From positions 15,994-79,993 of the forward strand of contig DASUAV010000174.1 in assembly GCA_035763605.1 (NCBI GenBank): 64,000 nucleotides of DNA. The letters are read 5' to 3'. Within the stretch, counting starts at the first letter, position 1. Each line of letters begins with the position of its first letter. Below, piece after piece: positions 4,851 through 20,385 of this stretch. Both the position numbers and the translations under genes were made by a program. A model generated the notes under the pieces. The model saw only the letters and a list, made by a program, of their open reading frames with translations, searched no databases and was not told where the DNA came from. The stretch comes from Candidatus Acidiferrales bacterium (lineage in GTDB: Bacteria; Acidobacteriota; Terriglobia; Acidiferrales; UBA7541).

Positions 4851-6328
4851 GCGTTAACGGGGATACGTTCGAGCGCGACATGCCCCGGAGCTTGTGAACG
4901 AAGCTCGTAAACAATGGCATCGGCGACTTTGTCCACATTATCTTTTTTCATGATCTCCGGCTGCCGAATGGGGTCGCCCCACTGCAGGCTGTGAGCGGTG
5001 GCGAGAAAAGCGACGACAAATTTCAATAGTCGCTCATGATCGGGCGCAAAGCCGTGCAGCGCCCGCGAAAGCGTCGCGGGCGGATCCGTAAGCGCTTCGC
5101 AAGAATAAGTCAGGCCGCTAAATCCGTAATACAAAGGCCCAAACGCGATAACCGGCTTCTCATAGAGAATCGCTTCCCACGCGCTGCTGCCGGTAATCGT
5201 AAGCACGGCAGCGGACTGGCGGATCAATTCGTGGCTGTCCATGGAAGGCGAGAGCAGCCGCACATTGAAGATTTTCTTGACCGCGCGGCAATCGGCGAGC
5301 GCTCGCTCGCCCTTCATTCCGGGATGCTCCTTCACGATAAGCTCGTAACCGGCAGGCAGGCTTTTGCTGATATTCTCGACGAGAGCAATCTGGTTTGTAA
5401 AGAGAGGCGCGCGCACGTCGGTGGTGAATTCCGGTTGGACATGCAGCGGAAAGTAAACAAAGGGGCTCTCCGTGCGCTTCACGTGCGCGAGGAAGGCTGT
5501 TTCAGCTACGGCGTGGCGCGCAATGCGAATGATGTCTTCGAACAAAGGCTTCCACGGCACTGTACCGTGATAAGAGCCCACTTCGAATTCACCGTCTTGA
5601 AGGTACGTTTTCAAGCGAAAGGGAATCCTGGCGATGCGACGCACGAAGCGTGCGAATTCCGGCTTCAGAGGAGAGCCCTGCGCCCAATTCAAAAATGGCG
5701 GTTTTGTTCGGGAAGCGCGGAAATTGGCGATGAATTGTTCCGCGATGATCGCTTCCTGAGAAGTAAGCCTGCGGTTCTCCAGCGCGCGAAACGCGTGTTC
5801 CATGCGCTCCCAACCGCCGTCCGGCGCGTGGAGGAAATAAAAGCGATTGGCGACAGGCGTAGCTGAGGGGATGAGATAACGAATGCCGTGCTCGCGCGCT
5901 TTCAGCCACCCAATCCACTCCGCGGCGCAGGCGACTTCGCCCAGAATAACGTCGGGCTGATAAGTAGAGAGAACCTCGACCCAAAATTCTGATATTGCGG
6001 CGACGATCGCGAGAATTTTAGAGTGCGGGTAACGAGAGATAATCCGGTCTGCGTGAATGATCGTATTGATTCGCGGTGCACCGTTCAGGCCTTCCAGTTC
6101 TTCTACTATATCGAAGGATTCTTTCGGTGTAATGGCGGGAACGCGGCGCTTGAGCCAACCGGCAAGATTGAAAATCGAAGAGAACCCTCCCGTTTTGTCG
6201 AGCAGAGCCGTGGCAGCAGTCGTGAATGAGATTGCGCTCACGTCCGCGCCAAGCCGTTCTCGCAATGAGCGAGCAATGGCCGGGAAAAAATAGCGGTACT
6301 CGCCCTTGCAAATCAGCAGGATCTTCAT
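4847..6328 (-). CDS. capsule polysaccharide biosynthesis protein family (KpsS/KpsC-like)
   Basis: 493 aa. 'FVYFPLHVQPEFTTDVRAPLF...LIVKEHPGMKG...VLTITGSSAWEAILYEKPVIAFG' resembles the Capsule_synth (KpsS/KpsC/LipB) family pattern (PLQV..D.., K.HP). Recognised from memory only. Confidence 0.55.
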   Translation of the reverse strand: MKILLICKGEYRYFFPAIARSLRERLGADVSAISFTTAATALLDKTGGFSSIFNLAGWLKRRVPAITPKESFDIVEELEGLNGAPRINTIIHADRIISRYPHSKILAIVAAISEFWVEVLSTYQPDVILGEVACAAEWIGWLKAREHGIRYLIPSATPVANRFYFLHAPDGGWERMEHAFRALENRRLTSQEAIIAEQFIANFRASRTKPPFLNWAQGSPLKPEFARFVRRIARIPFRLKTYLQDGEFEVGSYHGTVPWKPLFEDIIRIARHAVAETAFLAHVKRTESPFVYFPLHVQPEFTTDVRAPLFTNQIALVENISKSLPAGYELIVKEHPGMKGERALADCRAVKKIFNVRLLSPSMDSHELIRQSAAVLTITGSSAWEAILYEKPVIAFGPLYYGFSGLTYSCEALTDPPATLSRALHGFAPDHERLLKFVVAFLATAHSLQWGDPIRQPEIMKKDNVDKVADAIVYELRSQAPGHVALERIPVNA

Positions 6329-9300: not shown

Positions 9301-9931
9301 CGCTCAGTCCGCGTCCTCGCTCGTTGATCCTCAGGAAGCGTGCGCGACCGACGGTTTCCACGGATTCGAAGAGAGTGAAAGGCGCGGGAACAAAACCTTC
9401 ATGCGCAAGATAGAATGCAGTGGCAATGGAATTGAATTCGGCATGAGCGCCAGCGAGGAGCGCGGACTGCGAGGCAAATGCCAATCCGGAACCGAGCTGC
9501 CGGATTGAAATGTCCTCGCATCCGAATTTATCGACTGCTAAAAATATGCTTTTCGATTCACGGTCAACGAGCACAACACAGAAATTGCCTTCCAAGAGCG
9601 CAAAAGCGGAGCTTCCGTGCCGCTGATAAAGTCGCGCAATGCAGGAGGGCAAATCGGAGGGACCAATGTGACGCACTTCCGTATGCCTTCCGAAAGAGGT
9701 ATCAGATGCAAGCAGAGGCTTGCCCCAAACGAATACGATTGGACGCTGCGGACACGTGCGAGCCGCATCCCAGCGACAGAAATCGCCGTGTGCTGCCGCA
9801 TTTACCCAGATTCGCAGGCATGGCGCACTTGAATCGAGCGCCAGCTTCCATTCAAATCCATGCGGTGGAAACAAAGCTTTCGGACTTTTGTGTTCTGGCC
9901 CGATAAGTCCCATAAATGCGGGATAGCTCAT
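6338..9931 (-). CDS. fusion: AsnB-like amidotransferase domain (no Cys2 nucleophile) + Wzx/MOP-family polysaccharide flippase
   Basis: One uninterrupted frame spans 6338..10063 (1241 aa from a GTG inside the neuB-like gene). The first ATG outside that gene is 9931 (MSYPAFMG...). The N-terminal ~680 aa carry 'LEGNFCVVLVDRESKSIFLAVDKFG' and the PP-loop 'ILLSGGIDSALLANLL'. The C-terminal ~480 aa (from about nt 7800 down) are multi-TM with a Wzx look ('LLTRALGPAGFGAWSLF', 'YAKYGLPLLPG'). There is no stop between the two halves. Confidence 0.8.
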   Translation of the reverse strand: MSYPAFMGLIGPEHKSPKALFPPHGFEWKLALDSSAPCLRIWVNAAAHGDFCRWDAARTCPQRPIVFVWGKPLLASDTSFGRHTEVRHIGPSDLPSCIARLYQRHGSSAFALLEGNFCVVLVDRESKSIFLAVDKFGCEDISIRQLGSGLAFASQSALLAGAHAEFNSIATAFYLAHEGFVPAPFTLFESVETVGRARFLRINERGRGLSVESHRYWRLSPQSRGIASYKAVREFSSLLDSAIQPRIGHANGILLSGGIDSALLANLLAKHGSQCPLAVTASVRGHAESENETMAACELSTTLGIAHRAICVDPNDEALPEEWSACCGSWTVGVRTTLPLFARMAAELKSHFGGAYSAFSGQMADTLADNNYTLPSAGYTLRRLFFSPLFLRMMPILRAIAPREDGLAGRLLARTVQACAGARGASMFASLLGGFSSMERFYAGRVFGFGEMPGAAPLSFPLLTALGFESVWEWYATNFVMPAVSRLTPAAFYREMLELSLDMCMLHLDTRLVFHAIRLGGGHAEMPYLDSRIVNLFVNLPYRMRAFYRRPKYIIRNQFAQHGFLSSRPQSAKNGTARTREQKPNRNGSFEALLLGGTLGHYFRELLKTPTVFARAPRLFEFVDEQYFQKQRNSFLRGESDIDHKLISRLAALELWSRQLSRTVVAEAAISASSLRENNSLMNHQQAATAILPLPGDSLEVAASSPASSAAKRKFVRDIAFSNLPVPFQKLQTYLWLVLLTRALGPAGFGAWSLFMVTLSSATTISTLNCGSSLMRFLSGPRQEKEVNEAFTTVLLMVGVAGAFLGVAFLLFSNQATYWIFRSKQSTRLVALLAVALLFNSLFEEMKNLLRARRCNRSWAWLSLARIAPETLAVIAAALWFKNTESTVSAYVFVSVCSVCTGMIYLKMKHAISLERPSRRTFVKYAKYGLPLLPGVFASTLSLGADKYVISHFLGLKQVGIYTVCFAISAAVFFLTGPINDVLFPELSALYDGRNWPAFRERFRSAQKFVLAFAFGMAAILMALPRQVLRLVAPAEFAAGSATLAVLGIQGIFMAMVLLYVVILNTRMRVWSSTCFWLLSGAAIILLDVFFVPRIGILGAAFSQLIATAAGSFALIGIHWKLFRETFETKRLAQLSFCFLAVRVVGLLAGNQSEMVFRDISLLGVSAVIFAGCLYCTGYFTLPELKGFAAALFERHA

Positions 9932-9971
9932 GCAATCGTCAGAGAGGAACCGCGTACATACGCGATGTAGA

Positions 9972-11099
9972 TCATGCAACTGACATTTGAGACCGATCGA
10001 GGAACTCCTGCGAGTTGCGCCCATGGTCGGACGATTCCAACATCTTCCAGGTGATGTACTCACCTTTGGAAACCGGCCTTAGCAGCCTACGACCTATCAC
10101 TTCGTCCAACTGGCAAGGGAAAATAGCGTCTGAAGGAGCAGGCCGCAGAACGTCAATATCGCTGCGTTGAAGCCGAATGCCGACTGGAAGATCAACGGAA
10201 GCACGCAAACATCGGCGCTGCAAAATCACTGTTTCAATTTCATTCGTCGCGACGAATTTGTCTTCCGAGCCAAGCGCGCGCTCTAATTCGCGAGTACGCT
10301 CGACCATTTCAAACCACGTTTCAAGGTTCATCGAAAAAGGATGATCGGGGCCTTCGCGCGTGATGTCGTCGGTGAAATGCTTCTCGATGATTTTCGCCCC
10401 GAGAGCAACGGCACCAAGCACAGTTGCATGTCCAGCAGTGTGATCAGAAAGTCCAAGAACTGCATCCGGAAATTCGGCGCGATAAGTCCGAAGCACATTC
10501 AAGTGAATGTGATTTATGGATTCCGGTTCGCCCGTATAGTTCGTGTTGCATTGCAGCAGCGCAATTTGAGTATTGTTTCCGCGGACAGTCTCAATCGCGC
10601 GCCGCACATCCACCATATTCGAAGCGCCAGTCGAGAGAATCACCGGTTTGCGTTTTGCCGCAACATGCGCAAGCATCTCGGTCCAGGTGATGTCGCCTGA
10701 GCCGATTTTGTAGGCTCCCACATAGGGATCAAGCATGTTCGCCGCTTCAATATCGTAAGGCGTGGAGAGAAATTCGATGCCCGCTTCGTCGCAGCACGCC
10801 TTCAATTCTGGAGTCCATTCCCACGGAAGCGAGGCAGCGCGATAGACTTCACAAACGGGCTTGCGCCATTTCGCCTGGTGCGAAAGCTGAGTGCCCAGCG
10901 AGCGAAATCCAAAATCACTGACGATTTTCTCCGCGCGAAAATGCTGGAACTTGGCGGCATCAGCGCCTGCCTGCGCGGCGAGGCGAATGAGGTGTTTGGC
11001 GCGCTCCAGCGAGCCGTCGTGATTCGCGGAAATATCCGCGATGAAATAGACCGGCGAATCGCCGCCGATCGGGCGGTCACCGATTTTGAAGCTGGGCAT
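9972..11099 (-). CDS. NeuB-family nonulosonic acid synthase (N-acylneuraminate/pseudaminate/legionaminate synthase-like) with SAF domain
   Basis: 375 aa. 'MPSFKIGDRPIGGDSPVYFIADISANHDGSLERAKHLIRLAAQAGADAAKFQHF' is the classic NeuB N-terminus. The C-terminus 'LRPAPSDAIFPCQLDEVIGRRLLRPVSKGEYITWKML' is SAF-like. Confidence 0.85.
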   Translation of the reverse strand: MPSFKIGDRPIGGDSPVYFIADISANHDGSLERAKHLIRLAAQAGADAAKFQHFRAEKIVSDFGFRSLGTQLSHQAKWRKPVCEVYRAASLPWEWTPELKACCDEAGIEFLSTPYDIEAANMLDPYVGAYKIGSGDITWTEMLAHVAAKRKPVILSTGASNMVDVRRAIETVRGNNTQIALLQCNTNYTGEPESINHIHLNVLRTYRAEFPDAVLGLSDHTAGHATVLGAVALGAKIIEKHFTDDITREGPDHPFSMNLETWFEMVERTRELERALGSEDKFVATNEIETVILQRRCLRASVDLPVGIRLQRSDIDVLRPAPSDAIFPCQLDEVIGRRLLRPVSKGEYITWKMLESSDHGRNSQEFLDRSQMSVA

Positions 11100-12237
11100 G
11101 GGAACGTCTCCTTGCGACTGTTGAGCCGAGCAGGCATTCGTAAGCTTCCGATAATTTCGCGAAATTGCGCCGCCAATCCGCTCTTTCGCGACCGATTGTC
11201 ACATTCGCGCGGCCGGCGACAACGCGCGCGGCATCATCACGCATCGCCAGAATTAGTTTCTCCGCGAGCTTCTCCGAGTTGCGGACAGGGAATAGCCAGC
11301 CATTCTCGCCATCAGTCACCCATTCACGATTGCCCTCGTTACGTGGGACGACAACCGGCAAGCCGCACGCCATCGCTTGCAACAAACTGATGGAACTGCC
11401 GTCGCACGGCGCGGCGCTTGCGTACAAATCAGCCTCCGCAAAGTAGTCCGGCAGCATCTCTTCGGGAACGCGCCCGGCAAGATGGATTTTGGATTCAAAG
11501 TGATTTGCCCTGATGAATGTTTCGACGGATTTCCTCAAGCTGCCGTCGCCGAGCATGAGAACGCAAGCATCCTCCTGTTGCTGCAATAAGACTTTGATCG
11601 CGCCGAGAAGCACCGATGTTCCGTAAGCCGGCTCAAGCGCGCGCACGGTAATCACCACCTTGCAATCCGTCCAACCTAATCTGTTGCGCAAATCGAGCGA
11701 TGAAGGTCTTGGCCTGAACTTGTCCAGCCCGACTCCCCACGGAAAAGTGAAAATCCGTTCCATTGGAAGAGAACCGTACTCAACAATTCGTCGGCAAACA
11801 GCCCGGCAATCCGCGATGGCTGCGTCGGCGCGGCGCAACGTGAATTGAGTTATGTGACGGAGCGCATTATTTTTCTCGGCCGTTACAAGCACATCCGAGC
11901 CCCAGGACATTACGAGCAGCGGATGAAATCCGCTGAGCGCAGCGAAAAATCCGCCAGTCTGCACCGGCCCAGCGTGGATCAAATCAGGAGCAACGTTGTG
12001 CACCAGGCGATCAAACCGTTTTGCGGCAATGAGCCAGTTGCGCCTCCCAGGCGATAGTTCGCCGCGAGTCAATGGCGGCAGCCAGCGAATCGGAGCGCCC
12101 ACGCGCGGCAAATCCTTCTGAATAGACGCCTCTGCACAAGGCAGAAAAACAATCTCATGCTCCATTTCCGCCATGCGCTCAAGGAAGCGCCGGTCATGCG
12201 TGCAATATCCCTGCGAAACGTAAAGAATGCGGGCCAT
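11077..12237 (-). CDS. glycosyltransferase family 4 (GT-B, group 1)
   Basis: Internal ATG 12237 (MARILYVSQGY...) lies 2 nt after the upstream stop, so the 445-aa longest ORF is an over-extension. The C-terminal 'LYASAAPCDGSSISLLQAMACGLPVVVPRNEGNREWVTDGENGWLF' is the EX7E-type GT4 block. Confidence 0.8.
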   Translation of the reverse strand: MARILYVSQGYCTHDRRFLERMAEMEHEIVFLPCAEASIQKDLPRVGAPIRWLPPLTRGELSPGRRNWLIAAKRFDRLVHNVAPDLIHAGPVQTGGFFAALSGFHPLLVMSWGSDVLVTAEKNNALRHITQFTLRRADAAIADCRAVCRRIVEYGSLPMERIFTFPWGVGLDKFRPRPSSLDLRNRLGWTDCKVVITVRALEPAYGTSVLLGAIKVLLQQQEDACVLMLGDGSLRKSVETFIRANHFESKIHLAGRVPEEMLPDYFAEADLYASAAPCDGSSISLLQAMACGLPVVVPRNEGNREWVTDGENGWLFPVRNSEKLAEKLILAMRDDAARVVAGRANVTIGRERADWRRNFAKLSEAYECLLGSTVARRRSHAQLQNR

Positions 12238-12239
12238 GC

Positions 12240-13184
12240 TTACGTCGCTGCGCCGGAGCGGACGAGTCTCTCGATACCTGCATCTCCGGCCAAATACCCG
12301 CCGAGAGGCATCGTCTCGCGCATCATCTGCGTTTGCTCTCTTACCGAAGGCATCGTGCGACCGAGAAATCGCGAAAGTTTTTCCGTCGAAAGAGATGTGT
12401 TCTTTGGACGGCAAGCGCGAAACGGGAACTCATCAACGGAAACAGGATGAATAATGGACGCGTCAAGCTGAAACGCCCGAGCAAGCTCTATCGCGAATTC
12501 GTATTTCGAGCAGGAATCTCGCGCTCCCAAGTGAAAAAGTCCGCGCGCATCGCGGCGAATCAGCTCCAGAATGATATGAGCCAGTTCGTCTGTGAACAGC
12601 GGACTGAATCGAACATCCGTAAAGCCGCCGAAGCCCTCGCCTTTTATAAGTCGTGCAAGCATCCATTCGGCAAGACCGGCACGGTGACCATGAGACCATC
12701 CAAAGAAGTTCGTGCGAATGATGAGCGCATTGGGACAGCTTGACCGGACGAACTCTTCCGCTGCGAGCTTTGTGCGCGCATAAACGTTCACAGGAGCCGG
12801 ATCATCGCTTTCGCGATAATTGCCGCGTGTTCCATCAAAAACGGAGTCGGTGGAGATCAGGATGAATTTCGCGGCGTCCTCGGACGCCCAACTGGTGAGC
12901 ACCTTCGTGGCTTCCACGTTGACAGCCCACGCGCGGCTCTCATCCCTCTCGCACTGCTCCACATCCGTCAGTGCCGCGCAATGAATAATGAGCTGCGGGT
13001 GGACCTTGCTCAGAAACCGCAGCGTTGATGAGGCATCGGTTAGATCGAGGTGCCTGTGCCGCCACTGCGCCGCCGGAGGAATGATCGTTCGAGAAATTCC
13101 AAAGAGTTCGTGTTCATTCAGAGATTCTCTGGCGATGCAGCTCCCCAGCAGACCAGTCGCGCCCGTGATGAGCAGTTTTGCCAC
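12240..13184 (-). CDS. RmlD-like NAD(P)-dependent sugar reductase/epimerase (extended SDR)
   Basis: Starts 'MAKLLITGATGLLGSCI' (Rossmann GxxGxxG). About 314 aa with the RmlD substrate-binding-domain look ('YARTKLAAEEFV' YxxxK). Confidence 0.7.
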   Translation of the reverse strand: MAKLLITGATGLLGSCIARESLNEHELFGISRTIIPPAAQWRHRHLDLTDASSTLRFLSKVHPQLIIHCAALTDVEQCERDESRAWAVNVEATKVLTSWASEDAAKFILISTDSVFDGTRGNYRESDDPAPVNVYARTKLAAEEFVRSSCPNALIIRTNFFGWSHGHRAGLAEWMLARLIKGEGFGGFTDVRFSPLFTDELAHIILELIRRDARGLFHLGARDSCSKYEFAIELARAFQLDASIIHPVSVDEFPFRACRPKNTSLSTEKLSRFLGRTMPSVREQTQMMRETMPLGGYLAGDAGIERLVRSGAAT

Positions 13185-13205
13185 GAATACTATTTCAGCG
13201 GTCGT

Positions 13206-14027
13206 TCACCATGCCGTGTATCCGCCATCAACAATCAGGTTTTGGCCCGTAACGTAAGCCGACGCATCGGAGGCAAGGAATACCGCCGCGCCTTTAAGGT
13301 CGTTCGGCCCGGCCATGCGCCCCATCGGAGTTCGCTCGGCGTATTTTTCCACGAAAGGGACGGGCATGGATGGAGAGAACAATCCTCCGGGACTGATGCA
13401 GTTCACGCGAACGCCGCGCGCAGCAAAATAAACAGCGAGATAGCGCGTCAGTTGAATCATACCGGCCTTTACAAAGCCGTAGCTCGGCGGATTGGTCATT
13501 TCTGAATGGCCTTCGTAAATTCGGAAATCAGGGCTCACGATGCCATAAATTGAGGCGATGTTCACGATGCTGCCGGCGCCCCGGTTCGCCATCAGAGCGC
13601 CGAAAATGCGGCAAGCACGGTAAAGCGGAACCGAATTCTCTCCCACGGCTTGCGCCCAATCCGCATCGGCGTGCTCGTCCATCGGCTCCGCTTTAACCAT
13701 CACCGCATTATTGAAAAGAACGTCGAGTTTTCCATAGTTCGATTGGATCTTCCCCGCCACGTCCAAGACCGATTCTTCGTTCAGCAAATCGAGCGGCAGC
13801 GCATCTGCCTCATGCCCTTGCGACGAAAGCTCATCCGCGAAATCCGCGCATCTGTCGTAATTTCGCGAGGCGACGATTACAGTCGCTCCGGATTCGCCCA
13901 ACGCCCGGCAAATCTGCCGTCCATAACGTCCAGCGCCGCCAGTCACCAGCGCGACGCGATCTTTCAGCGAAAAAAGATCTCGAACATGAACGTTTGGCGA
14001 GACAGTTGCTGTCGTTCCAATACTCAT
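13206..14027 (-). CDS. SDR family oxidoreductase (classical short-chain dehydrogenase)
   Basis: 'VALVTGGAGRYGRQICRAL' (TGxxxGxG), 'NNAV' and 'YGFVKAGMIQLTR' (YxxxK), with the C-terminal 'SDASAYVTGQNLIVDGG'. ATGA overlap with the upstream gene. Confidence 0.85.
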   Translation of the reverse strand: MSIGTTATVSPNVHVRDLFSLKDRVALVTGGAGRYGRQICRALGESGATVIVASRNYDRCADFADELSSQGHEADALPLDLLNEESVLDVAGKIQSNYGKLDVLFNNAVMVKAEPMDEHADADWAQAVGENSVPLYRACRIFGALMANRGAGSIVNIASIYGIVSPDFRIYEGHSEMTNPPSYGFVKAGMIQLTRYLAVYFAARGVRVNCISPGGLFSPSMPVPFVEKYAERTPMGRMAGPNDLKGAAVFLASDASAYVTGQNLIVDGGYTAW

Positions 14028-14782
14028 GTCGGAAAAGGCTGATGCAAGTGCGCGTTGTATTGTGCGAGGCGCGGGTTCGCGTCGAGAAATCGAATCACAT
14101 CTTTCAATCGCATGTGGTCACCGCCCGGAACGCTCTCATAAATTCTGCGAATCAGGCGCAAGTCTTCTTCGTGATCCACAGTCAAAAAATAATTCGGACG
14201 CTGGATGTCAGCCGCAGAATGTAATTCGACGCAATGGAATTCGCTGTGCTTTTTTGCGTAAGCCGCGAAGTATTCGCGCCCATGCGGATCCGTCAAATGG
14301 CGGTCGCAATATTCCAATACCGAACGGCTCGCTGCTTCCGCACCGGCTCCATATGGATGCCCATCGCGATGCATGTTATGAACAAGAACCGGTCGGATGC
14401 CGTTGCCGCGCTGCTGTTCCATCAACTCCGTTATCAGCGCGTCCAGACCTTCCGGATCCGTGAGCGGATTATCACCAGTGACGCGGACAAACTCGCTCAA
14501 TCCGAATGCATCCGCCGCACCCAACAATCTCGCAGTGAGGTCGCGTTCCGGGCCGCGAAACACCTTCACTCCCCATAGAACGCAGCATTCTTCTATAACG
14601 TCATCCTGCGACTGGCCAGACGTGGCGACGATCACTTCTCGAGCCCGCCGGCAAAGCGCCATCCGATTGCACAGCCGTTGCAGCAACGGTTTCCCGCAGA
14701 TTGGCACAAGCGCTTTGCCGGGTAATCGCGTGGAACCCATTCGCGCCTGCACCAAAATCCCGACTCGCCCGCCGTTATGCAT
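14024..14782 (-). CDS. cytidylyltransferase (SpsF/acylneuraminate cytidylyltransferase-like, CTP_transf_3 type)
   Basis: 'GILVQARMGSTRLPGKALVPICGKPLL...VIVATS...RVTGDNPLTDP' matches the SpsF/KdsB/NeuA-type nucleotidyltransferase N-terminus. Confidence 0.75.
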   Translation of the reverse strand: MHNGGRVGILVQARMGSTRLPGKALVPICGKPLLQRLCNRMALCRRAREVIVATSGQSQDDVIEECCVLWGVKVFRGPERDLTARLLGAADAFGLSEFVRVTGDNPLTDPEGLDALITELMEQQRGNGIRPVLVHNMHRDGHPYGAGAEAASRSVLEYCDRHLTDPHGREYFAAYAKKHSEFHCVELHSAADIQRPNYFLTVDHEEDLRLIRRIYESVPGGDHMRLKDVIRFLDANPRLAQYNAHLHQPFPT

Positions 14783-16043
14783 GCGCCGCGCGGCAAAGCA
14801 GGTGCCGGTGCTCCATCACCTTCTGCATGGCATTCACGATATCGTCCATATCTGCGCCGGTCGCGGGGGATCGCACGATACCCGTGAGCATCACTTCGCG
14901 CTCATAAAGCCGCTCCGCCGTCGGACAGATTCCGCGCTCATAGCTCGCGCTTCCGCGATAATGCTCAAAGGCGAAGTGCTGTCGGTTCTGATAGAGCGGC
15001 GCGAAATACAGTGGACGCACATAACCTGCCGAAAAAGGAATGCCTTCCGCATTCATCGCTTGTACAAAGACCTCTCGCGGAATACCCGCCTGCGCTTCGT
15101 CGTACTTGAGCGCATAGACGTAATACACATGTCGCGCATTCGGCAGCGCCAAGGGAGGCTTAATGCCTGGAAGCCCCGCAATTCTCTCCGAAAGATGACT
15201 CGCCAGTTCGATGCGTATCTCATTCAGGATATCCAGTTTTTTCAATTGCGCGATGCCCAGCGCCGCTTCCATTTCCGTCATGCGGTAATTCCAGCCGAGC
15301 ATCGAAGAGGAATAGGTCCGTTCCTTCTGCCCTTCGGCGATCATTTCTCCATGATTGCGCACCATGCGCGCCTGCTCAGCGATTCCGGCATCATTGGTGA
15401 TGAGCATGCCGCCTTCGCCTGTGGTGATCGTCTTGCTTTCGGTAAACGAAAAAATGCCGCAATCGCCAAACGTTCCTACAAAGCGGCCATTCCATTTCGC
15501 GCCGGGCGCCTGCGCGCAGTCCTCAATCAGCCGCAGATTGTGTTTTTTCGCAACGGCAATGAGCGCATCGAGATTCGCCGGATGTCCGAAGAGATGAACA
15601 ACGATGATCGCCCGCGTAAGCGGCGTTATGGCGCGTTCGACCGCGTCCGGATCAAGGCCGAACACGACGTCATCAATATCCGCAAAAACAGGAATCGCAT
15701 TGTGCATCAGCCCGCACGTAGCCGTGGAAGTGAACGTATACGGCGGCACAATCACTTCTCCTCCGGGTTGCACTCCCGTTGCGACAATAGCCGCGTGCAA
15801 AGCCGCTGTGGCTGAATTGAACGCTACCGCGTATTTCGTCCCGTGATATTCCGCGAATTGCCTCTCAAACTCTTTTATTTTTTGCCCGCCATTGAAGTAT
15901 TCTCCGGGCGCGGCAATGAATGTGGAAAGCCTGCCAATCTCCAGCACTTCCATCACCGCTCGCTTTTCCTCTTCGCCGATCACCGGATGCGCTGGAAACG
16001 GTTTTGTCCGCAGCGGTTTTCCGCCCAGCATTGCCAGATTCAT
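14775..16043 (-). CDS. DegT/DnrJ/EryC1/StrS family sugar aminotransferase (PLP)
   Basis: Internal ATG 16043 (MNLAMLGGKPLRTKPFPAHPVIGEEE...) forms an ATGA overlap with the upstream stop. 'FERQFAEYHGTKYAVAFNSATAALHAA' and 'GIFSFTESKTITTGEGG' (Lys-containing block) are typical of the family. Confidence 0.9.
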   Translation of the reverse strand: MNLAMLGGKPLRTKPFPAHPVIGEEEKRAVMEVLEIGRLSTFIAAPGEYFNGGQKIKEFERQFAEYHGTKYAVAFNSATAALHAAIVATGVQPGGEVIVPPYTFTSTATCGLMHNAIPVFADIDDVVFGLDPDAVERAITPLTRAIIVVHLFGHPANLDALIAVAKKHNLRLIEDCAQAPGAKWNGRFVGTFGDCGIFSFTESKTITTGEGGMLITNDAGIAEQARMVRNHGEMIAEGQKERTYSSSMLGWNYRMTEMEAALGIAQLKKLDILNEIRIELASHLSERIAGLPGIKPPLALPNARHVYYVYALKYDEAQAGIPREVFVQAMNAEGIPFSAGYVRPLYFAPLYQNRQHFAFEHYRGSASYERGICPTAERLYEREVMLTGIVRSPATGADMDDIVNAMQKVMEHRHLLCRAAHA

Positions 16044-17125
16044 GAACTCGCCCTCTTCGCTGCGGAATTTGGCAGCAATGAATCCGGTGACGACGAAGTT
16101 GAACGAAGATCTGCCGCGCTTGCTGCGCACAATCTGACGCGCTTGCCGCATTCGAGCGCCGAATGACTCAGCGCGCAAACGATTTCAAGCGCCGCGCGCC
16201 CATCTTCTCCACTGCTCACCGGAACAGCGCAATTCTGGATGTAATCCATCAGGTGGCGCACGCCCAGCGGCAGCAGGTCCTGCGTGAACTCGCCTTCCAT
16301 CGGCAGCGGAGCGGGAAACAATTCGCGATATCCCGAATAACGTTCGCTCTCGCGAGCCTCCTCGAAATCCGCGCAATAGCCGTGCGAACCAATCCTCAGC
16401 CGGCCTTTCGTTCCAAGAAGACTCATTTCAAAGATGGTGTAAGCCGATACATCGCACGCTTGAATCGCCGCAAGAGCTCCGCAGGAAAGGCCGAGCCATC
16501 CGTCTATATTTGGATCTGCGGCGCTGGACGACGCGCACGCACTTACGCGCCCTTCTGCCCACGCGACTTCACCGGCATACAGCCGCAGCAGGTCGAACAA
16601 ATGCGTGCCGGTATTGACGATTCCCGCGGTGTAATAACACGTCGCCTGCTGCAACTTGCCCAATCCGCCGTCGCGCACAAATTGCGCTAATTGCTGATGC
16701 ATCGGATCGAATCGCCGCTGATGATCAATCATCAGAACGACATTTTTTGCGGCACACAGTCGAATCATTTCAGTTGCTGCTTCGACGCTGTCCGCGATCG
16801 GCTTTTCGCAGAAAATGCCGCGCACGCCGTACTCCACGGCACAGCGGGCGATTTCCAGGTGAGAGCTGCTCGGGGTGCAAATGGACACAATATCCAAGCG
16901 CTCGCGAGCAAACATCTGAACGTGGTCCGAATAAAGTGCGGACACGCCAAATTTTGCGCCGTATCGCTGCCGCTTAACTAAATCCGTGTCGCAAAGCGCC
17001 GCCAGCTCAACGCCAGCCGTGGAGAGGTACGCGCGTGCGTGCGTGCTCACGTATTTGCGCCGCGTATCATCATCAAAGCCGCATCCAATTCGCCCGCATC
17101 CGACAATGCCCGCGCGGAGTTTCAT
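16040..17125 (-). CDS. Gfo/Idh/MocA family oxidoreductase
   Basis: Starts 'MKLRAGIVGCGRIGCGF' (N-terminal Rossmann), with 'IFCEKPIA' (EKP motif). ATGA overlap with the GNAT gene. Confidence 0.85.
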   Translation of the reverse strand: MKLRAGIVGCGRIGCGFDDDTRRKYVSTHARAYLSTAGVELAALCDTDLVKRQRYGAKFGVSALYSDHVQMFARERLDIVSICTPSSSHLEIARCAVEYGVRGIFCEKPIADSVEAATEMIRLCAAKNVVLMIDHQRRFDPMHQQLAQFVRDGGLGKLQQATCYYTAGIVNTGTHLFDLLRLYAGEVAWAEGRVSACASSSAADPNIDGWLGLSCGALAAIQACDVSAYTIFEMSLLGTKGRLRIGSHGYCADFEEARESERYSGYRELFPAPLPMEGEFTQDLLPLGVRHLMDYIQNCAVPVSSGEDGRAALEIVCALSHSALECGKRVRLCAASAADLRSTSSSPDSLLPNSAAKRASS

Positions 17126-17706
17126 TTCGTCACCGTCATCGCGCGCGGCTGCAGGTAAGTCTCCCGAAGCGCCTCATATTCCGAACGCAGCAGGCTCATC
17201 CGAATCGCGTCGTAGTATCGAAAATTGCGGTACTGCTCCTGCCGCAACACGCCTTCGTGAACAAATCCCGCCTTCTCATACGCGCGCACGCCGCCAGGAT
17301 TTTCCGCATTCACACCCAGCCATACCTTGTTCAAATTGAGTTTTTCGAACCCATAAACCACCATCAACTTCGCGCATTCCGTGCCGATTCCGCGATTCCA
17401 CACGCGCTTATCGCCGATGAACACGCGAAACTCCGCCGTGCGCATCACCCAGTGAATGCGGTAGAGGCCTGTAGTACCCACAAATGCTCCCGTCTTCCCA
17501 TCGCAAACGGCAAAAGCAATTTCGTCTGGATTGTTGCGGTCGCGTTCCCATTGCGCGGCGAGCATTTCTACGTTTGTGGGCAGCAGGCCCATGAAAAGCA
17601 GGCGCGTCACCTCCGAGTCGTTCAGCCACTCCGCAAGCAAAGCCAAATCGGCGCGCCCCAGGCTTCTGAGGCAGACAACATTCCCTTGAATGAACGTGGC
17701 GATCAT
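17122..17706 (-). CDS. GNAT family N-acetyltransferase
   Basis: ATG 17706 (MIATFIQGNVVCLRSLGRADLALLAEWLNDSEV) gives an ATGA overlap; ATG 17715 is an alternative start. 'RVWNRGIGTECAKLMVVYGFEKLNLNKVWLGVNAENPGGVRAYEKAGF' is a RimJ/RimL-like acetyl-CoA binding core. Confidence 0.8.
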   Translation of the reverse strand: MIATFIQGNVVCLRSLGRADLALLAEWLNDSEVTRLLFMGLLPTNVEMLAAQWERDRNNPDEIAFAVCDGKTGAFVGTTGLYRIHWVMRTAEFRVFIGDKRVWNRGIGTECAKLMVVYGFEKLNLNKVWLGVNAENPGGVRAYEKAGFVHEGVLRQEQYRNFRYYDAIRMSLLRSEYEALRETYLQPRAMTVTK

Positions 17707-18734
17707 CTCGTGCATGCCGCTCGAGCCGAGATGTGCACCGCGACGGGCAAACCGGTGCACAGCGATTCCTTCGCTTTCTCCGCGAGCCGCAGGGATTTCA
17801 ACGCCTCGCGGCCGTCTACCAGAGGCGTTGCTTCGCCCGTCAAGCATTCAAGCAAATGGCGCATTTCCGATTCGTACATCTCCTCGATGCTTCCGCAATT
17901 CTCCGCTTCGTGCCACCTTCCGACCTGAGCATTGAAATAGCGCGCTTGCCTCGTAAAAACATCCGCCTGAATTCGGCCTTCGGTTCCCACGATTTCGCAC
18001 CATCGCTCCGCCGGACGGCTGACAAAATCCAAATGAATCGAAACAATCTTGTCCGGATAGCTCATCAAGATTTCCGCCGTATCTTCCACATCAATTTCCA
18101 TCTCGCTGAACTTGCCTCCCGCGCAATAGATCTTCTCCGGCTCCCCAAACAGCCGGCAGGCCATGTCCAGTTCATGGATAGCGTCCAAAATCACGCCTCC
18201 CCCAAGTTCGCGCCGCGCTCCGTAGCCGGCGCGATAGTCTTCCCAGGGATGCCGCGAAGGAAGATGCGAACCGAAATGAAAATGCGCGCTGGTGACGTTT
18301 CCGATTCGACGTTCGCAGATCCACGCACGCACATAATTCAGCACGCGATCAAAACGGAAGTTGTATCCGGCAAGCAACAAACGGCCCCGTGCTTCTGCGG
18401 CGTCAATCAACGAATGGACGCCTTCTGCCGAATCTGCAAGCGGCTTTTCGATGAACAAATGGCAATCGCTTTGCAGCGCCCGATCTGCCAGCGTCAGGTG
18501 CATGCTGGTCGGCGCGCAGATGAGCGCAATTTCAGGCTCTTCGGCGAGCGCTCGTTCTGCGCTGTCGAAAAAGTTCCCGCCGCGCTCGTCAGAAAGGGAA
18601 GCGGCGCGTTCGATCTGCGGGTCAACGAGAAGCAAATTCGCTACACCCAGTTTGCGCAGGTTCCGCGCATGTCGCTGCCCAATCGAGCCGCAGCCAATCA
18701 CAGCAATTCTCATTTCATTAAAATCGGGCAGCAT
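17703..18734 (-). CDS. Gfo/Idh/MocA family oxidoreductase
   Basis: ATG 18734 (MLPDFNEMRIAVIGCGSIGQRHARNL) lies 5 nt after the upstream stop. 'LFIEKPLA' EKP motif. Confidence 0.85.
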   Translation of the reverse strand: MLPDFNEMRIAVIGCGSIGQRHARNLRKLGVANLLLVDPQIERAASLSDERGGNFFDSAERALAEEPEIALICAPTSMHLTLADRALQSDCHLFIEKPLADSAEGVHSLIDAAEARGRLLLAGYNFRFDRVLNYVRAWICERRIGNVTSAHFHFGSHLPSRHPWEDYRAGYGARRELGGGVILDAIHELDMACRLFGEPEKIYCAGGKFSEMEIDVEDTAEILMSYPDKIVSIHLDFVSRPAERWCEIVGTEGRIQADVFTRQARYFNAQVGRWHEAENCGSIEEMYESEMRHLLECLTGEATPLVDGREALKSLRLAEKAKESLCTGLPVAVHISARAACTR

Positions 18735-18739
18735 TTCGA

Positions 18740-19786
18740 CTAACGTGCAGCAGCCACGGCTCTCAGAAAAGCCGGTTCGTGCGGCTGCTGATTTTCGGAA
18801 CGAGATTTGAAGCCCAACTGGGCGAGGAGCAAGGCAATCTCGTCGCGTCCGAGCCAATGCGAATTTGTGTTGCTGGCGTACTCGAACGAGTCCACGCACG
18901 GCTCGCCCGAACTCCAGTTCGCCGCGTCCCACCAGCGAAAATCCGGCTGAATCACGAAGAAATCCTCCAGTTCAACCGTGTGTCGCGCGTCATCCCGTGG
19001 AATCATCACTTCGTGCAGCTTTTCGCCCGGCCGTATTCCCACAAATTCGATCGAGCATTCCGGAGCGATTACCTCTGCCAAATCCCGTATCTGCACGCTT
19101 GGAATTTTCGGCACGAAGATTTCGCCGCCGTGCATCTGTTCGAGGCAGCTCATCACAAAACGCGCGCCCTGTTCGAGCGTAATCAGGAAGCGCGTCATTC
19201 GTTTGTCCGTGATCGTTAGCCTTCCCGTTTTTTTCTGTTCCCAAAAATACGGAATCACGCTCCCGCGGCTCCCTGCGACGTTTCCATAGCGCACCACGCT
19301 CATGCGCGTCTTCCGCGCGCCGGCGTAAACGTTGCCGGCAACAAACAGCTTGTCCGAACACAGTTTCGATGCTCCGTACAAATTCACGGGCAGGGCCGCC
19401 TTGTCGGTACTCAACGCAATCACGTGCTGCACCCCGCAATCAATGGCTGCATCAATCACGTTGGCCGCGCCCATAACGTTGGTTTTGATGGCCTCAAACG
19501 GGTTGTATTCTGCGCACGGAACTTGTTTCATCGCCGCGGCATGGATCACGATGTCCACATCATAAAAGGCGCGATAGAGCCGTTCTTTGTCGCGCACGTC
19601 CCCTATGAAGTAGCGAATGTTCGCAGCATCGAACCCTTCCGCTCTCATCGCGAACTGCTTCATCTCATCGCGGCTGAAAATGATGATCTTCTTCGGCCGG
19701 TAATCGGCCATAAGCAGTGAAGTGAGCTGCCTTCCAAAGCTGCCCGTCCCGCCGGTAATCAGAACTGTTTTTTCGCTCCAGCTCAT
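18740..19786 (-). CDS. UDP-sugar 4,6-dehydratase, PseB/FlaA1/CapD-like
   Basis: ATG 19786 (MSWSEKTVLITGGTGSFGRQLTSLL...KKIIIFSRDEMKQ) forms an ATGA overlap with the NusG-like gene. 'VIHAAAMKQVP..EYNP.EAIKTNV.GA.NV' is characteristic of PseB/CapD dehydratases. Confidence 0.85.
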   Translation of the reverse strand: MSWSEKTVLITGGTGSFGRQLTSLLMADYRPKKIIIFSRDEMKQFAMRAEGFDAANIRYFIGDVRDKERLYRAFYDVDIVIHAAAMKQVPCAEYNPFEAIKTNVMGAANVIDAAIDCGVQHVIALSTDKAALPVNLYGASKLCSDKLFVAGNVYAGARKTRMSVVRYGNVAGSRGSVIPYFWEQKKTGRLTITDKRMTRFLITLEQGARFVMSCLEQMHGGEIFVPKIPSVQIRDLAEVIAPECSIEFVGIRPGEKLHEVMIPRDDARHTVELEDFFVIQPDFRWWDAANWSSGEPCVDSFEYASNTNSHWLGRDEIALLLAQLGFKSRSENQQPHEPAFLRAVAAAR

Positions 19787-20385
19787 ACGTTCGCCTGAAT
19801 CTGAGCTGCGTCGCATCCGCGGAGAACTTTCCATTGCTCGCCGCCGTCAATCGGACAGATGTCCTCAGCATCAACGTCCACAACCACCGAGCGCATAATC
19901 AAATCAATCGACAGCACGAGCCGCAAGCCGCCCTTCCTCCTGAGCAAAGTTCCCTCCATTCCCGCGAGAGGCCCGCGCAGAATTCGCAGCTTCTGCCCTT
20001 CGCAGACGTACGGATGCGGCTCCATTTCGATTTGTCCTTGCAGGCCTTTGCGAAGCGCTTCAATATCCGCATCCGCCAGAGGCTCCGGCGTATCGCCGAA
20101 ACCCACCAGACGCGCGACTCCCGGCGCCTGCAAAACTCTCAGCCGTTCTAGGAGCGGCAGGCGAACAAAGACGTATCCCGGAAACAAAGGCAGTTTCAGC
20201 CGCACTCTGCGGTCCTTCCACTGATGAATCGCCTCATACAGTGGCAAAAAGTATTCGACGCCCCGCCCGGCAAGATGTTCAGCCACGCGCTTTTCATGAT
20301 TCGCGCATATATACGCCGCATACCAAAAAGGTCTCAGGCATGCCGCGCTGCGTGATTCAATCGAAATGGATTCAGAGCTGCTCAT
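19783..20385 (-). CDS. NusG/RfaH-like transcription antitermination paralog (NGN + KOW)
   Basis: ATG 20385 is preceded by GAGG at 5-nt spacing. NGN domain: 'WYAAYICANHEKRVAEHLAGRGVEYFLPLYE...LPLFPGYVFVRL'. KOW domain: 'GQKLRILRGPLAGMEGTLL'. Confidence 0.8.
   Translation of the reverse strand: MSSSESISIESRSAACLRPFWYAAYICANHEKRVAEHLAGRGVEYFLPLYEAIHQWKDRRVRLKLPLFPGYVFVRLPLLERLRVLQAPGVARLVGFGDTPEPLADADIEALRKGLQGQIEMEPHPYVCEGQKLRILRGPLAGMEGTLLRRKGGLRLVLSIDLIMRSVVVDVDAEDICPIDGGEQWKVLRGCDAAQIQANV

Follow-up and report, generated by a model that had tools for sequence, protein, structure and literature searches.

The window – the whole 64,000-nucleotide stretch of DNA that was analysed – belongs to the MAG of an uncultured soil acidobacterium, 81.9% complete. 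Ten co-directional genes occupy positions 9972–19786 on its minus strand (Table 1). Pfam and NCBIfam profile searches identified them, in order, as PseB, GfoA, GNAT, GfoB, DegT, a CMP-transferase, an SDR, an RmlD-like reductase, a GT4-like protein and a NeuB-like synthase, followed by a reading frame for AsnB and Wzx. Once start codons were refined, most neighbouring genes either overlapped by 4 nt (ATGA) or lay a few bases apart, which agrees with the ten consecutive, largely overlapping genes named in the initial annotation. The catalytic motifs are intact: EKP in both Gfo proteins (at residue 96 in GfoA and residue 107 in GfoB), YxxxK in PseB, the RmlD-like protein and the SDR, and the PLP lysine (K204) in DegT.

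PseB is the first biosynthetic gene, and its start overlaps the stop codon of a NusG/RfaH-like paralogue. This paralogue is kept at the head of the syntenic loci L003–L007 and L099; in locus L098 a NusG gene is instead found upstream of wzc. At the other end, the AsnB/Wzx frame lies directly downstream of the NeuB-like gene, and L003, L098 and one JGI contig likewise have an AsnB-like gene after NeuB or PseI.

Table 1. Features of the nonulosonate locus and its immediate neighbours, in gene order
Feature	Position	Strand	Evidence
NusG/RfaH-like paralogue, operon head (context only)	19783..20385	-	PF02357, E 2e-17
PseB, inverting UDP-GlcNAc 4,6-dehydratase	18740..19786	-	TIGR03589, 501.8 bits (cut-off 407.75)
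GfoA, ElaA-like candidate dehydrogenase of a (CMP-)nonulosonate hydroxyl	17703..18734	-	PF01408, PF02894, PF22725
GNAT N-acetyltransferase, predicted tailoring enzyme, not PseH	17122..17715	-	Acetyltransf_3, E 1e-23
GfoB, Gfo/Idh/MocA with atypical C-terminal domain, putative dehydrogenase partner of DegT	16040..17125	-	profile matches
DegT-family aminotransferase (DegT2), predicted tailoring transaminase	14775..16043	-	PF01041, E 1e-100
SpsF/KdsB-type cytidylyltransferase, putative CMP-nonulosonate synthetase	14024..14782	-	CTP_transf_3, E 1e-26
Classical SDR, ElaC-like candidate ketoreductase completing epimerisation	13206..14027	-	adh_short_C2, E 2e-47
RmlD-like protein, predicted C4 ketoreductase of the PseB product	12240..13184	-	RmlD_sub_bind, E 6e-62
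GT4-like protein, candidate UDP-sugar hydrolase, functional stand-in for PseG	11077..12237	-	Glycos_transf_1, E 3e-27
NeuB-like nonulosonate synthase with SAF domain	9972..11099	-	PF03102, E 6e-74
AsnB-like amidotransferase and Wzx flippase reading frame (context only)	6338..10063	-	Asn_synthase, Polysacc_synt

The NeuB-like protein scores below the cut-offs of both TIGR03569 (270.9, cut-off 399.65) and TIGR03586 (230.9, cut-off 340.25). With a profile of its own clade run over 301 genomes, members scored at least 596 bits and all other NeuB-family proteins at most 274. The clade is monophyletic in a tree (SH-aLRT 100) and sister to PseI, so that by profile and phylogeny it is distinct, neither NeuB/LegI nor PseI. 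The RmlD-like protein reaches 207.8 bits against TIGR01214 (cut-off 224). By its PDB matches, which do not include 6IFD, the cytidylyltransferase is not PseF- or ElaB-like.

Eighty loci encoding a NeuB-like protein at least 58% identical to that of the window were surveyed, and neighbours were counted within 10 kb. These loci come from Acidobacteriota, Chloroflexota (including the cultured Leptolinea tardivitalis), Planctomycetota, Elusimicrobiota, Nitrospinota, Gemmatimonadota, Verrucomicrobiota, Pseudomonadota and Methanomicrobiales. PseB is present in 74 of the 80, the RmlD-like gene in 71, the GT4-like gene in 74 and a CMP-transferase in 70; PseB and the RmlD-like, GT4-like and NeuB-like genes are all found together in 66. 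The conserved core thus consists of PseB, the RmlD-like reductase, the GT4-like protein, the distinct NeuB-like clade and the CMP-transferase. There are exceptions – L027 and L080 have the NeuB-like gene with the GT4-like gene missing, four loci with full flanks have no RmlD-like gene within 10 kb, and 18 of the 80 carry a DegT homologue (less than 45% identical) alongside the RmlD-like gene, the two that were scanned (L011, L052) being true PseC. Because of the last two groups, reduction is not simply a substitute for amination everywhere.

Around this core, the window operon can be read as three modules: the core itself, an Ela-like Gfo/Idh/MocA and SDR pair around the CMP-transferase, and a GNAT-GfoB-DegT trio. 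The modules behave independently. G019, a congeneric, 100% complete genome with the same locus type, has at L099 (on a contig shared with L006) the core and GfoA-CMP-transferase-SDR without the trio, and L097 has the trio with GfoA and the SDR missing. The four extra oxidoreductases pointed out in the initial annotation thereby find places: one in the core (RmlD-like), two in the Ela-like pair and one (GfoB) with DegT.

No gene for PseG (TIGR03590) or NeuC (TIGR03568) and no credible Epimerase_2 gene was found by whole-genome profile search in either the window's MAG (81.9% complete) or G019 (100%), which extends to whole genomes the earlier remark that no hydrolase or 2-epimerase gene was evident. 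Ten other genomes bearing the cassette had no PseG above the cut-off, and the five of them tested for NeuC had none. A further genome, G026, does have a true NeuC, but on another contig. The search of twelve genomes revealed no other hydrolase family. The view that the cluster is a variant nonulosonate route with no PseG or NeuC, rather than a canonical Pse or Leg pathway, is supported; the interpretation proposed at first is, as a whole, partly supported.

A natural swap between the window locus and a canonical Pse cluster is seen in the Terriglobia locus L098, which has the order PseB-PseC-GfoA-GNAT-GfoB-DegT2-CMP-transferase-SDR-PseH-PseG-PseI-AsnB-Wzx. All five of its Pse genes that were scanned, a set without PseB, scored above the NCBIfam cut-offs. 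The genes common to both loci are in the same order and 34–70% identical (PseB 70%, SDR 62%, cytidylyltransferase 49%). L098 has PseC and PseH and no RmlD-like counterpart; overall, its PseC, PseH, PseG and PseI stand against the RmlD-like, GT4-like and NeuB-like genes of the window. Since L098, with the same gene order, carries PseG there, the GT4-like gene is in exactly the place of PseG. A tailoring block is common to the window operon and ordinary pseudaminic acid clusters, and orthologues of the window DegT and GNAT coexist with true PseC and PseH in L098, and likewise in L096 and L097.

This coexistence bears on the functions of DegT and GNAT, which the initial annotation had taken for backbone enzymes of the PseC and PseH type. 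If they were, the GT4-like and NeuB-like proteins would complete a route to Pse5Ac7Ac, with the RmlD-like protein on a side branch. PseC is indeed the best-scoring NCBIfam model for DegT (251 bits; LegC 230, cut-off 420), PseH matches GNAT (40.8 bits, second to 73.7 for spermidine N1-acetyltransferase), and in some loci the NeuB-like and GT4-like genes are accompanied by a true PseC. These scores are, however, far under the curated cut-offs for PseC (423.5) and PseH (93.1). In the canonical Pse clusters L096–L098, the window DegT shares 66–68% identity with the second DegT (68% in L098) but only 33–38% with the first, which is in the PseC position and in L098 is a confirmed PseC (33%). GNAT is 34–63% identical to its orthologues, the value being 63% for those located before GfoB in L096 and L097. 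DegT always travels with GfoB, a dehydrogenase that would be pointless if a 4-keto group already existed, and the G019 locus lacks DegT and GNAT while keeping the rest. A canonical Pse pathway in disguise is accordingly improbable, and DegT and GNAT are, by orthology and profile score, tailoring enzymes.

The trio GNAT-GfoB-DegT would turn a hydroxyl group into an N-acetyl group. GfoB adjoins a DegT orthologue in the window, L009, L053, L096, L097, L098 and two JGI contigs. In Pse-type sugars, C5 and C7 already bear nitrogen, and free secondary hydroxyls at C4 and C8 arise only after condensation; in canonical Pse clusters the trio could therefore have no other substrate than the complete nine-carbon sugar. 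Among the nearest PDB relatives of DegT are enzymes whose substrates are non-nucleotide ketones – Fic25 (243 bits), 2-DOI aminotransferase (208) and KdnA (200) – as well as perosamine synthase (217), with weaker matches to WbpE (140) and to 2fn6, which we take to be H. pylori PseC (128).

The Gfo, DegT and GNAT proteins could instead form a WbpB/WbpE/WbpD- or GnnA/GnnB-like set making a separate UDP-2,3-diacetamido sugar, or uronate, for an exopolysaccharide unrelated to the nonulosonate; the initial annotation had offered a 3-amino uronate of this kind as its alternative. The logic of Gfo plus DegT equals that of WbpB plus WbpE, and the archaeal UDP-GlcNAc 3-dehydrogenase model, whose cut-off is 450 bits, picks up both Gfo proteins with scores near 100. 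Yet WbpE is a weak relative of DegT next to the best match, the operon has no UDP-GlcNAc 6-dehydrogenase gene, and all five GfoB homologue contexts sampled were nonulosonate clusters with the order GNAT-GfoB-DegT-CMP-transferase. Such a separate sugar is very improbable.

The GT4-like protein is the candidate for the step that PseG would carry out. We know of no GT4-family enzyme that is a dedicated hydrolase. Its AF2 model (pLDDT 94.6) has as nearest folds BshA and MshA, and also PglA, all true transferases, and a D279-G-[ST]-S motif is invariant where canonical GT4 enzymes presumably have E-G-F-G. The possibility raised earlier that it is a mis-called PseG fails as a matter of homology, the GT4 fold being genuine, but its syntenic position is that of PseG. 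In its distribution the GT4-like clade follows the NeuB-like clade. Its members reach 461 bits or more, whereas paralogues stay at or below 160, and such members were seen only in genomes with the NeuB-like gene. Five such genomes have one match each (461–510 bits; split across contig ends in G319), while the best score in five NeuB-like-negative genomes is 143.5 bits. Of 75 loci, 72 have the GT4-like gene directly beside the NeuB-like gene (overlapping or at most 20 nt apart in 66), and as a fixed partner of the latter the GT4-like gene is no bystander.

Two pathways might nevertheless be interleaved here, PseB and the RmlD-like protein making a UDP-6-deoxy-L-AltNAc donor that the GT4 would use as a conventional transferase (compare FnlA/FnlB/FnlC-WbuB and WbvB/WbvR), and another hydrolase feeding the NeuB-like synthase. 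WbuB-type GT4 genes come after fnlABC in L-FucNAc clusters, which counts for such a reading, as do the full GT-B GT4 fold with transferases as nearest neighbours and the 18 loci with PseC-like and RmlD-like genes together. L-6dAltNAc is itself a residue beside a nonulosonate in the F. nucleatum 25586 O-antigen (PMC13014188). Against it, the GT4-like gene is tied to the NeuB-like gene and not to the RmlD-like gene, which it adjoins in 6 of 68 loci, and it is still there where the RmlD-like gene is missing (L044, L045, L049, L055). It is one orthologous clade across bacterial phyla and archaea despite differing glycan contexts, it takes the place of PseG in the swap, and the twelve genomes yielded no other hydrolase family. 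Interleaved pathways are thus unlikely, and the GT4-like protein is a candidate UDP-sugar hydrolase in the role of PseG.

GfoA and the SDR mirror two enzymes of Acinetobacter baumannii KL49, where ElaA (Gfo), ElaB (CTP-transferase) and ElaC (SDR) epimerise C8 of CMP-Leg5,7Ac2 (PMC13656337). The best PDB relatives of GfoA are 8w9s and then 3EZY, the closest solved relative of ElaA, and the top match of the SDR (144 bits) is 6UH2, the search model used in solving ElaC (PMC13656337). GfoA homologues share one ORF with CTP_transf_3 and Aminotran_3 domains in L052, L060, L081 and L070, and Gfo, CMP-transferase and DegT are contiguous in one archaeal and one Nitrospinaceae locus. By this analogy GfoA and the SDR are candidates for the roles of ElaA and ElaC around the CMP-transferase.

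The best explanation, with a confidence of roughly 0.58, is that the ten genes form a single operon for a modular CMP-nonulosonate pathway with RmlD-like reduction, GT4-like release and late tailoring. Its chemical steps, the hydrolase role and the tailored positions are read from sequence and gene context. PseB would convert UDP-GlcNAc to UDP-2-acetamido-2,6-dideoxy-beta-L-arabino-hexos-4-ulose, and the RmlD-like protein would reduce C4, which the canonical pathway aminates, to give UDP-6-deoxy-L-AltNAc or its C4 epimer. The GT4-like protein would free the sugar from UDP, the NeuB-like synthase would condense it with PEP to a 5-acetamido-7-hydroxy-3,5,9-trideoxy-nonulosonate (the fusaminic acid skeleton), and the SpsF-type enzyme would form the CMP-sugar. 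GfoB would oxidise a secondary hydroxyl of the nine-carbon sugar, most likely at C8, after which DegT would transaminate the ketone and GNAT acetylate the amine. GfoA and the SDR would epimerise another hydroxyl by oxidation and then re-reduction, as ElaA and ElaC flanking ElaB do; if they act at C8 like the Ela enzymes, the site of the trio must be elsewhere. The likely product is a nonulosonate of the fusaminic type (7-hydroxy, 9-deoxy) that bears two N-acetyl groups, the second probably at C8, and the operon probably makes an undescribed sialic-acid-like nine-carbon sugar.

Among the closest known systems is the CMP-Pse pathway of Campylobacter and Helicobacter (PseB, PseC, PseH, PseG, PseI, PseF). 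Both begin with a true PseB and would share a logic – UDP-sugar, free 6-deoxy-L-hexosamine, PEP condensation, CMP activation – and the window's NeuB-like clade is sister to PseI, while its relative L098 has the full canonical set in the same order. Unlike that pathway, the window has no orthologues of PseC, PseH, PseG or PseI; a reductase would replace amination and acetylation at hexose C4, the place of the GT28-like PseG is taken by a GT4-fold protein, and the cytidylyltransferase is SpsF/KdsB-like. With the KL49 system the window shares a triad of Gfo/Idh/MocA, CTP-transferase and classical SDR, contiguous in L099 and split by the amination trio in the window. This likeness is one of families, arrangement and PDB relatives (second-best for GfoA, best for the SDR); the window enzymes would act on a Pse-type or 7-hydroxy nonulosonate rather than on Leg, and the cytidylyltransferase is of another type than ElaB.

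The O-antigen sugars of Fusobacterium nucleatum ATCC 25586 were reportedly described by Vinogradov in 2017. They include fusaminic acid (5-amino-3,5,9-trideoxy) and L-6dAltNAc (cited in PMC13014188 and PMC7371886). The skeleton predicted for the core product is that of fusaminic acid, a 5-amino-3,5,9-trideoxy-nonulosonate with a C7 hydroxyl, and the predicted precursor 6-deoxy-L-AltNAc co-occurs in the same polymer. The literature searched yielded no biosynthetic genes for fusaminic acid. Since the amination trio and epimerase pair are added in the window, its end product should differ from fusaminic acid.

There is a natural precedent for a manno-configured, Pse-like nonulosonate with nitrogen at C8, namely the 5,7,8-triamino-3,5,7,8,9-pentadeoxy sugar of the Flexibacter/Tenacibaculum maritimum O-polysaccharide (PMC3210612). 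A sugar of that type would result from the trio inside canonical Pse clusters, whereas the window sugar would bear a hydroxyl at C7 rather than nitrogen. Finally, WbpB/WbpE, NtdC/NtdA and inositol dehydrogenase with inosose aminotransferase follow the same two-enzyme logic of oxidation then PLP transamination, and an N-acetyltransferase then follows such hydroxyl-to-amine pairs, as in the window; here the enzymes would act on a nine-carbon ulosonic acid rather than on a UDP-hexose, sugar phosphate or cyclitol.

Ten genes are encoded on the minus strand of the window behind a NusG-like paralogue, and the identities that the initial annotation gave them were borne out by Pfam and NCBIfam. PseB is an inverting UDP-GlcNAc 4,6-dehydratase (TIGR03589, 501.8 vs 407.75 bits; NCBIfam scores are given throughout as bits vs the curated cut-off). 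The operon also encodes two Gfo/Idh/MocA proteins (GfoA and GfoB), a GNAT protein, a DegT aminotransferase, a CTP_transf_3 (SpsF-type) cytidylyltransferase, a classical SDR, an RmlD-like reductase (207.8 vs 224), a genuine GT4 and a NeuB-family synthase carrying a SAF domain. After refinement of the start codons, most junctions are 4-nt overlaps or gaps of a few bases, and the catalytic motifs are intact. Around the operon lies an exopolysaccharide locus of the exosortase type, in which Wza/Wzc, AsnB-like, Wzx, KpsS-like and GT9 genes occur. The KpsS/KpsC-family (Capsule_synth) protein encoded downstream, which is kept in the syntenic loci L003–L007, is a plausible candidate transferase for a CMP-nonulosonate. 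The AsnB-like amidotransferase gene directly 3' of the NeuB-like gene has counterparts directly 3' of NeuB-like or PseI genes elsewhere; its product may alter the nonulosonate, for example by amide or amidine formation.

Coordinates of the operon, its neighbours and related features in other loci and genomes
Feature	Sequence	Coordinates	Remark
Ten-gene operon	window	9972-19786	minus strand
NusG-like paralogue	window	19783-20385	precedes the ten operon genes
GNAT-GfoB-DegT trio	window	14775-17715	
KpsS/KpsC-family gene	window	4847-6328	downstream of the operon
AsnB-like gene	window	6338-10063	3' of NeuB-like
AsnB-like gene	L098	15646-17541	3' of PseI
AsnB-like gene	L003	11181-13205	3' of NeuB-like/PseI
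AsnB-like gene	one JGI contig		3' of NeuB-like/PseI
Core beside Wzt gene	L037	4259-19260	Leptolinea tardivitalis YMTK-2
True PseB and PseC with RmlD-like, NeuB-like, GT4-like	L011	5962-12201	
NeuB-like without RmlD-like or GT4-like	L027	5808-9983	Planctomycetales
Fused Gfo-CTP_transf_3-aminotransferase ORF	L052	5926-9024	
Fused Gfo-CTP_transf_3-aminotransferase ORF	L060	5955-9044	
Fused Gfo-CTP_transf_3-aminotransferase ORF	L081	5857-9075	
Fused Gfo-CTP_transf_3-aminotransferase ORF	L070	5469-8693	
True NeuC	G026, contig C4	490120-491208	contig other than that of the reductive cassette

Nonulosonic acids, a group of surface sugars, influence phage and immune recognition as well as biofilm properties, and three pathways for their biosynthesis are known (Neu, Leg and Pse). 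The window matches none of these beyond its dehydratase. The scores for the later Pse enzymes fell short of their cut-offs – 251 vs 423.5 for DegT as PseC (TIGR03588), 40.8 vs 93.1 for GNAT as PseH (TIGR03585), and 230.9 vs 340.25 for the NeuB-like protein as PseI (TIGR03586) – as did those for LegB (62 vs 475), LegC (230 vs 420) and NeuB_NnaB/LegI (270.9 vs 399.65). By model score the dehydratase is PseB and not LegB; the NeuB-like protein belongs with neither NeuB/LegI nor PseI. In a quick maximum-likelihood tree its clade was monophyletic (SH-aLRT 100), with a long stem, and sister to PseI (support 90).

The initial annotation had seen no hydrolase or hydrolysing 2-epimerase gene in the operon, and whole-genome searches agree. 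In the MAG to which the window belongs there were no matches at E ≤ 0.01 to PseG (TIGR03590, a GT28-like UDP-sugar hydrolase) and nothing credible for Epimerase_2, the one weak match of 18.8 bits being far under the cut-off. Because this MAG is only 81.9% complete, the search was repeated in G019, a congener with this locus whose genome is 100% complete; its best PseG match was 20.9 bits. NeuC (TIGR03568) was absent from both. None of ten further genomes bearing the NeuB-like gene had a PseG above cut-off (weak matches to the model, of 23–33 bits, were not counted), and in the five of these searched for NeuC, including that of the cultured Leptolinea tardivitalis, there were only non-hydrolysing, WecB-level matches. 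A true NeuC (407.6 bits) was found in the acidobacterium G026 along with the reductive cassette, so two nonulosonate routes can share one genome.

All five genes of a reductive, aminotransferase-free cassette are present in the window: PseB, RmlD-like, NeuB-like, an adjoining GT4-like gene and the SpsF-type cytidylyltransferase. Membership is indicated by the NeuB-like profile (632 bits), the tree placement and the alignment of the GT4-like protein. The NeuB-like protein has very numerous close relatives. A genome scan with it as query gave 80 loci from nine bacterial phyla and Methanomicrobiales, at 58–77% identity, and tblastn of the window proteins on these loci found PseB in 74, RmlD-like in 71, GT4-like in 74 and the cytidylyltransferase in 70. 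PseB, RmlD-like, GT4-like and NeuB-like occur all together in 66. Among 301 Acidobacteriota genomes, a profile of the NeuB-like clade scored its members at 596 bits or more and no other NeuB-family protein above 274; members were found in three genomes, too few for a phylogenetic profile. Most Chloroflexota loci have the core alone. In the cultured strain L. tardivitalis YMTK-2, the neighbours of the core include genes for a methyltransferase, a Gfo/Idh/MocA protein and a Wzt ABC-transporter ATPase bearing a Wzt_C glycan-cap-binding domain, and the nonulosonate may cap an ABC-exported polysaccharide.

There are exceptions to this pattern. A PseC-like DegT gene lies beside the RmlD-like gene in 18 of the 80 loci, and is a true PseC in L011 and L052. 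In L011 the genes for a true PseB and for PseC (475 bits, likewise true) come before those for the cytidylyltransferase and the RmlD-like, NeuB-like and GT4-like proteins, and about 17 loci from Acidobacteriota and others are similar; the scanned ORFs gave no PseH or PseG. In loci of this type one 4-keto sugar seems to be subject to both reduction and amination. Four loci with full flanks (L044, L045, L049 and L055) have NeuB-like and GT4-like with PseB and the cytidylyltransferase, and no RmlD-like gene within 10 kb. The GT4-like gene is absent beside NeuB-like in two loci, L027 and L080, and a PseG or NeuC replacement was sought in both and not found. L080 has a small GT2. In L027 there is another NeuB-family gene, of very divergent sequence, along with genes for a class-III aminotransferase, a PIG-L protein and a HAD protein.

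We consider it rather probable that the GT4-like protein is the UDP-releasing enzyme of the pathway. The case is made by position, by co-occurrence and by the absence of any alternative. The GT4-like gene directly adjoins NeuB-like in 72 of 75 same-strand cases, with an overlap or at most 20 nt between them in 66. In an independent sample of the class to which Leptolinea belongs, five further NeuB-like-positive genomes (Leptolinea apart) each had exactly one member of the GT4-like clade, at 461–510 bits (one split at contig ends) with paralogues at 160 or less, while the best score in five NeuB-like-negative genomes was at most 143.5 bits. The fold and motifs are no proof of this activity. The AF2 model (pLDDT 94.6) is a standard GT-B GT4 fold, nearest to BshA and MshA, which use UDP-GlcNAc as donor and small soluble acceptors. 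The Glycos_transf_1 Pfam domain is present, and an ESM Atlas look-up returned generic GT4 clusters only. Canonical GT4s have E-G-F-G in the donor-binding EX7E motif. In the GT4-like clade D279-G-[ST]-S is invariant, with Asp in place of the first Glu and with E or Q at the second position; H14, R17, D115, D143, R199, N303 and W306 vary little or not at all.

A comparison with L098, a Terriglobia locus with canonical Pse genes, shows what the reductive core may replace. The order in L098 is NusG-Wzc-TPR-Wzy-PseB-PseC-GfoA-GNAT-GfoB-DegT2-CMPt-SDR-PseH-PseG-PseI-AsnB-Wzx and that in the window is Wzc-NusG-PseB-GfoA-GNAT-GfoB-DegT-CMPt-SDR-RmlD-GT4-NeuB-like-AsnB/Wzx, where CMPt is the cytidylyltransferase and DegT2 the counterpart of the window DegT. 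The canonical genes of L098 pass their cut-offs: PseC 457.6 vs 423.5, PseH 139.6 vs 93.1, PseG 168.3 vs 153.55 and PseI 456.8 vs 340.25. The shared genes are 70% (PseB), 50% (GfoA), 61% (GfoB), 68% (DegT), 49% (cytidylyltransferase) and 62% (SDR) identical, the window NeuB-like protein and L098 PseI just 33%, and L098 has no counterpart of the window RmlD-like or GT4-like genes. As read from gene content and identity, this is a natural module swap, in which RmlD-like would stand in for PseC plus PseH, GT4-like for PseG, and the NeuB-like clade for PseI. The fate of the 4-keto group would be decided by RmlD-like in the window and by PseC plus PseH in L098. What is new here is this exchange with a canonical Pse cluster, together with the tailoring block that the two have in common.

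Five further genes sit within the core in the window: GfoA, GNAT, GfoB, DegT and SDR. The initial annotation had placed DegT and GNAT in the backbone of the pathway, and this has to be corrected. Both are tailoring paralogues, occurring side by side with a true PseC in L096, L097 and L098 (the first two being other Pse-type loci) and, in L098, with a true PseH as well. GfoB homologues of 52–61% identity were traced to their contigs, and all five sampled contexts were nonulosonate clusters with the order GNAT-GfoB-DegT, the cytidylyltransferase following directly in three. In G019 (locus L099 on contig C15, the contig of L006) the order is PseB-GfoA-CMPt-SDR-RmlD-GT4-NeuB, and only about 60 nt (tblastn coordinates) separate GfoA from the cytidylyltransferase, so the trio is missing as one block; the two congeneric genomes differ cleanly by the presence or absence of these three genes. 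In L097 the trio is present, and GfoA and SDR are absent.

In a Pse-type sugar nitrogen is already present at C5 and C7, C6 is taken up by the ring, and the C4 and C8 hydroxyls arise only after hydrolysis and condensation. The trio in L096–L098 must therefore act on the nine-carbon sugar. A tie of oxidation and amination to CMP activation is indicated by gene fusions: in four loci an ORF of about 1030 aa joins Gfo/Idh/MocA, CTP_transf_3 and a class-III (GSA-aminomutase-like) aminotransferase, lying in L052, L060 and L081 between a DegT in the PseC position (the true PseC in L052) and the RmlD-NeuB-GT4 core, and in L070 without such a DegT. Gfo, cytidylyltransferase and DegT genes are also contiguous in one archaeal and one Nitrospinaceae locus, which points the same way.

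The AF2 model of DegT was poor (pLDDT 53, from a five-sequence alignment), and Foldseek output was used solely for PDB titles. The PDB protein that DegT matches best is Fic25 (243 bits), with an acyclic N-acetyl diamino acid as ligand; next come GDP-perosamine synthase, 2-deoxy-scyllo-inosose aminotransferases and the Kdo C8 transaminase KdnA. WbpE (140 bits) and H. pylori PseC (128 bits; PDB 2fn6) are weaker. A WbpB/WbpE/WbpD 2,3-diacetamido route on UDP-GlcNAc(A), matching the 3-amino-uronate that had been offered as an option for the Gfo-DegT pair, is disfavoured by that WbpE score, by the UDP-GlcNAc 3-dehydrogenase model (about 100 vs 450) and by the nonulosonate setting of all sampled trio contexts.

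The variant nonulosonate route proposed at the outset is supported, and we put at roughly 0.7 the probability that the operon is a single nonulosonate pathway, a reductive core plus tailoring. For the aminated carbon C8 is favoured, tentatively and at a little short of even odds. The fullest proposal is that the GT4-fold clade is a new, non-homologous UDP-6-deoxy-hexosamine hydrolase family replacing PseG, and that the trio aminates and acetylates a CMP-nonulosonate at C8, giving 5,8-diacetamido-7-hydroxy-3,5,8,9-tetradeoxy-nonulosonate; as a whole this is rather doubtful. This sugar is undescribed. If the pathway as read here is right, UDP release would have another enzyme family, unrelated to the first; genes would be assigned for the first time to sugars of the fusaminic type (7-hydroxy, 9-deoxy); and a portable tailoring block would put a new N-acetyl on finished nine-carbon sugars of canonical and reductive pathways alike. 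The predicted product has the mass of Pse/Leg5Ac7Ac, so mass-only environmental surveys may record it under Pse or Leg. L098 and the window, with their swapped modules, offer a ready-made comparison; L. tardivitalis as a cultured core carrier makes the chemistry testable, and tests are also possible in vitro.

Each of the two predicted features has a chemical precedent. Fusaminic acid (5-amino-3,5,9-trideoxy, with a C7 hydroxyl) is found alongside L-6dAltNAc in F. nucleatum 25586 (PMC13014188, PMC7371886), and Flexibacter maritimus has an 8-amino Pse-like nonulosonate (PMC3210612). The literature consulted on fusaminic acid, on 6-deoxy-L-AltNAc-derived nonulosonates and on the T. maritimum 8-amino sugar, and that on PDB entries 8GYH, 6UH2, 6OEW and 8W9S, gave structures and precedents and no gene assignments.

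For GfoA and SDR the comparison is with ElaABC of A. baumannii, in which ElaA, ElaB and ElaC epimerise C8 of CMP-Leg5,7Ac2 (PMC13656337). The second-best PDB relative of GfoA is 3EZY, reported as closest to ElaA, and the best of SDR is 6UH2, the search model for ElaC (PMC13656337). By analogy, GfoA and SDR are candidate nonulosonate epimerases of the ElaABC type; if, like Ela, they work on C8, the trio would need C4 or C7. The Gfo/Idh/MocA, CTP-transferase and SDR architecture of ElaABC is also found here, contiguous in the G019 locus but interrupted in the window.
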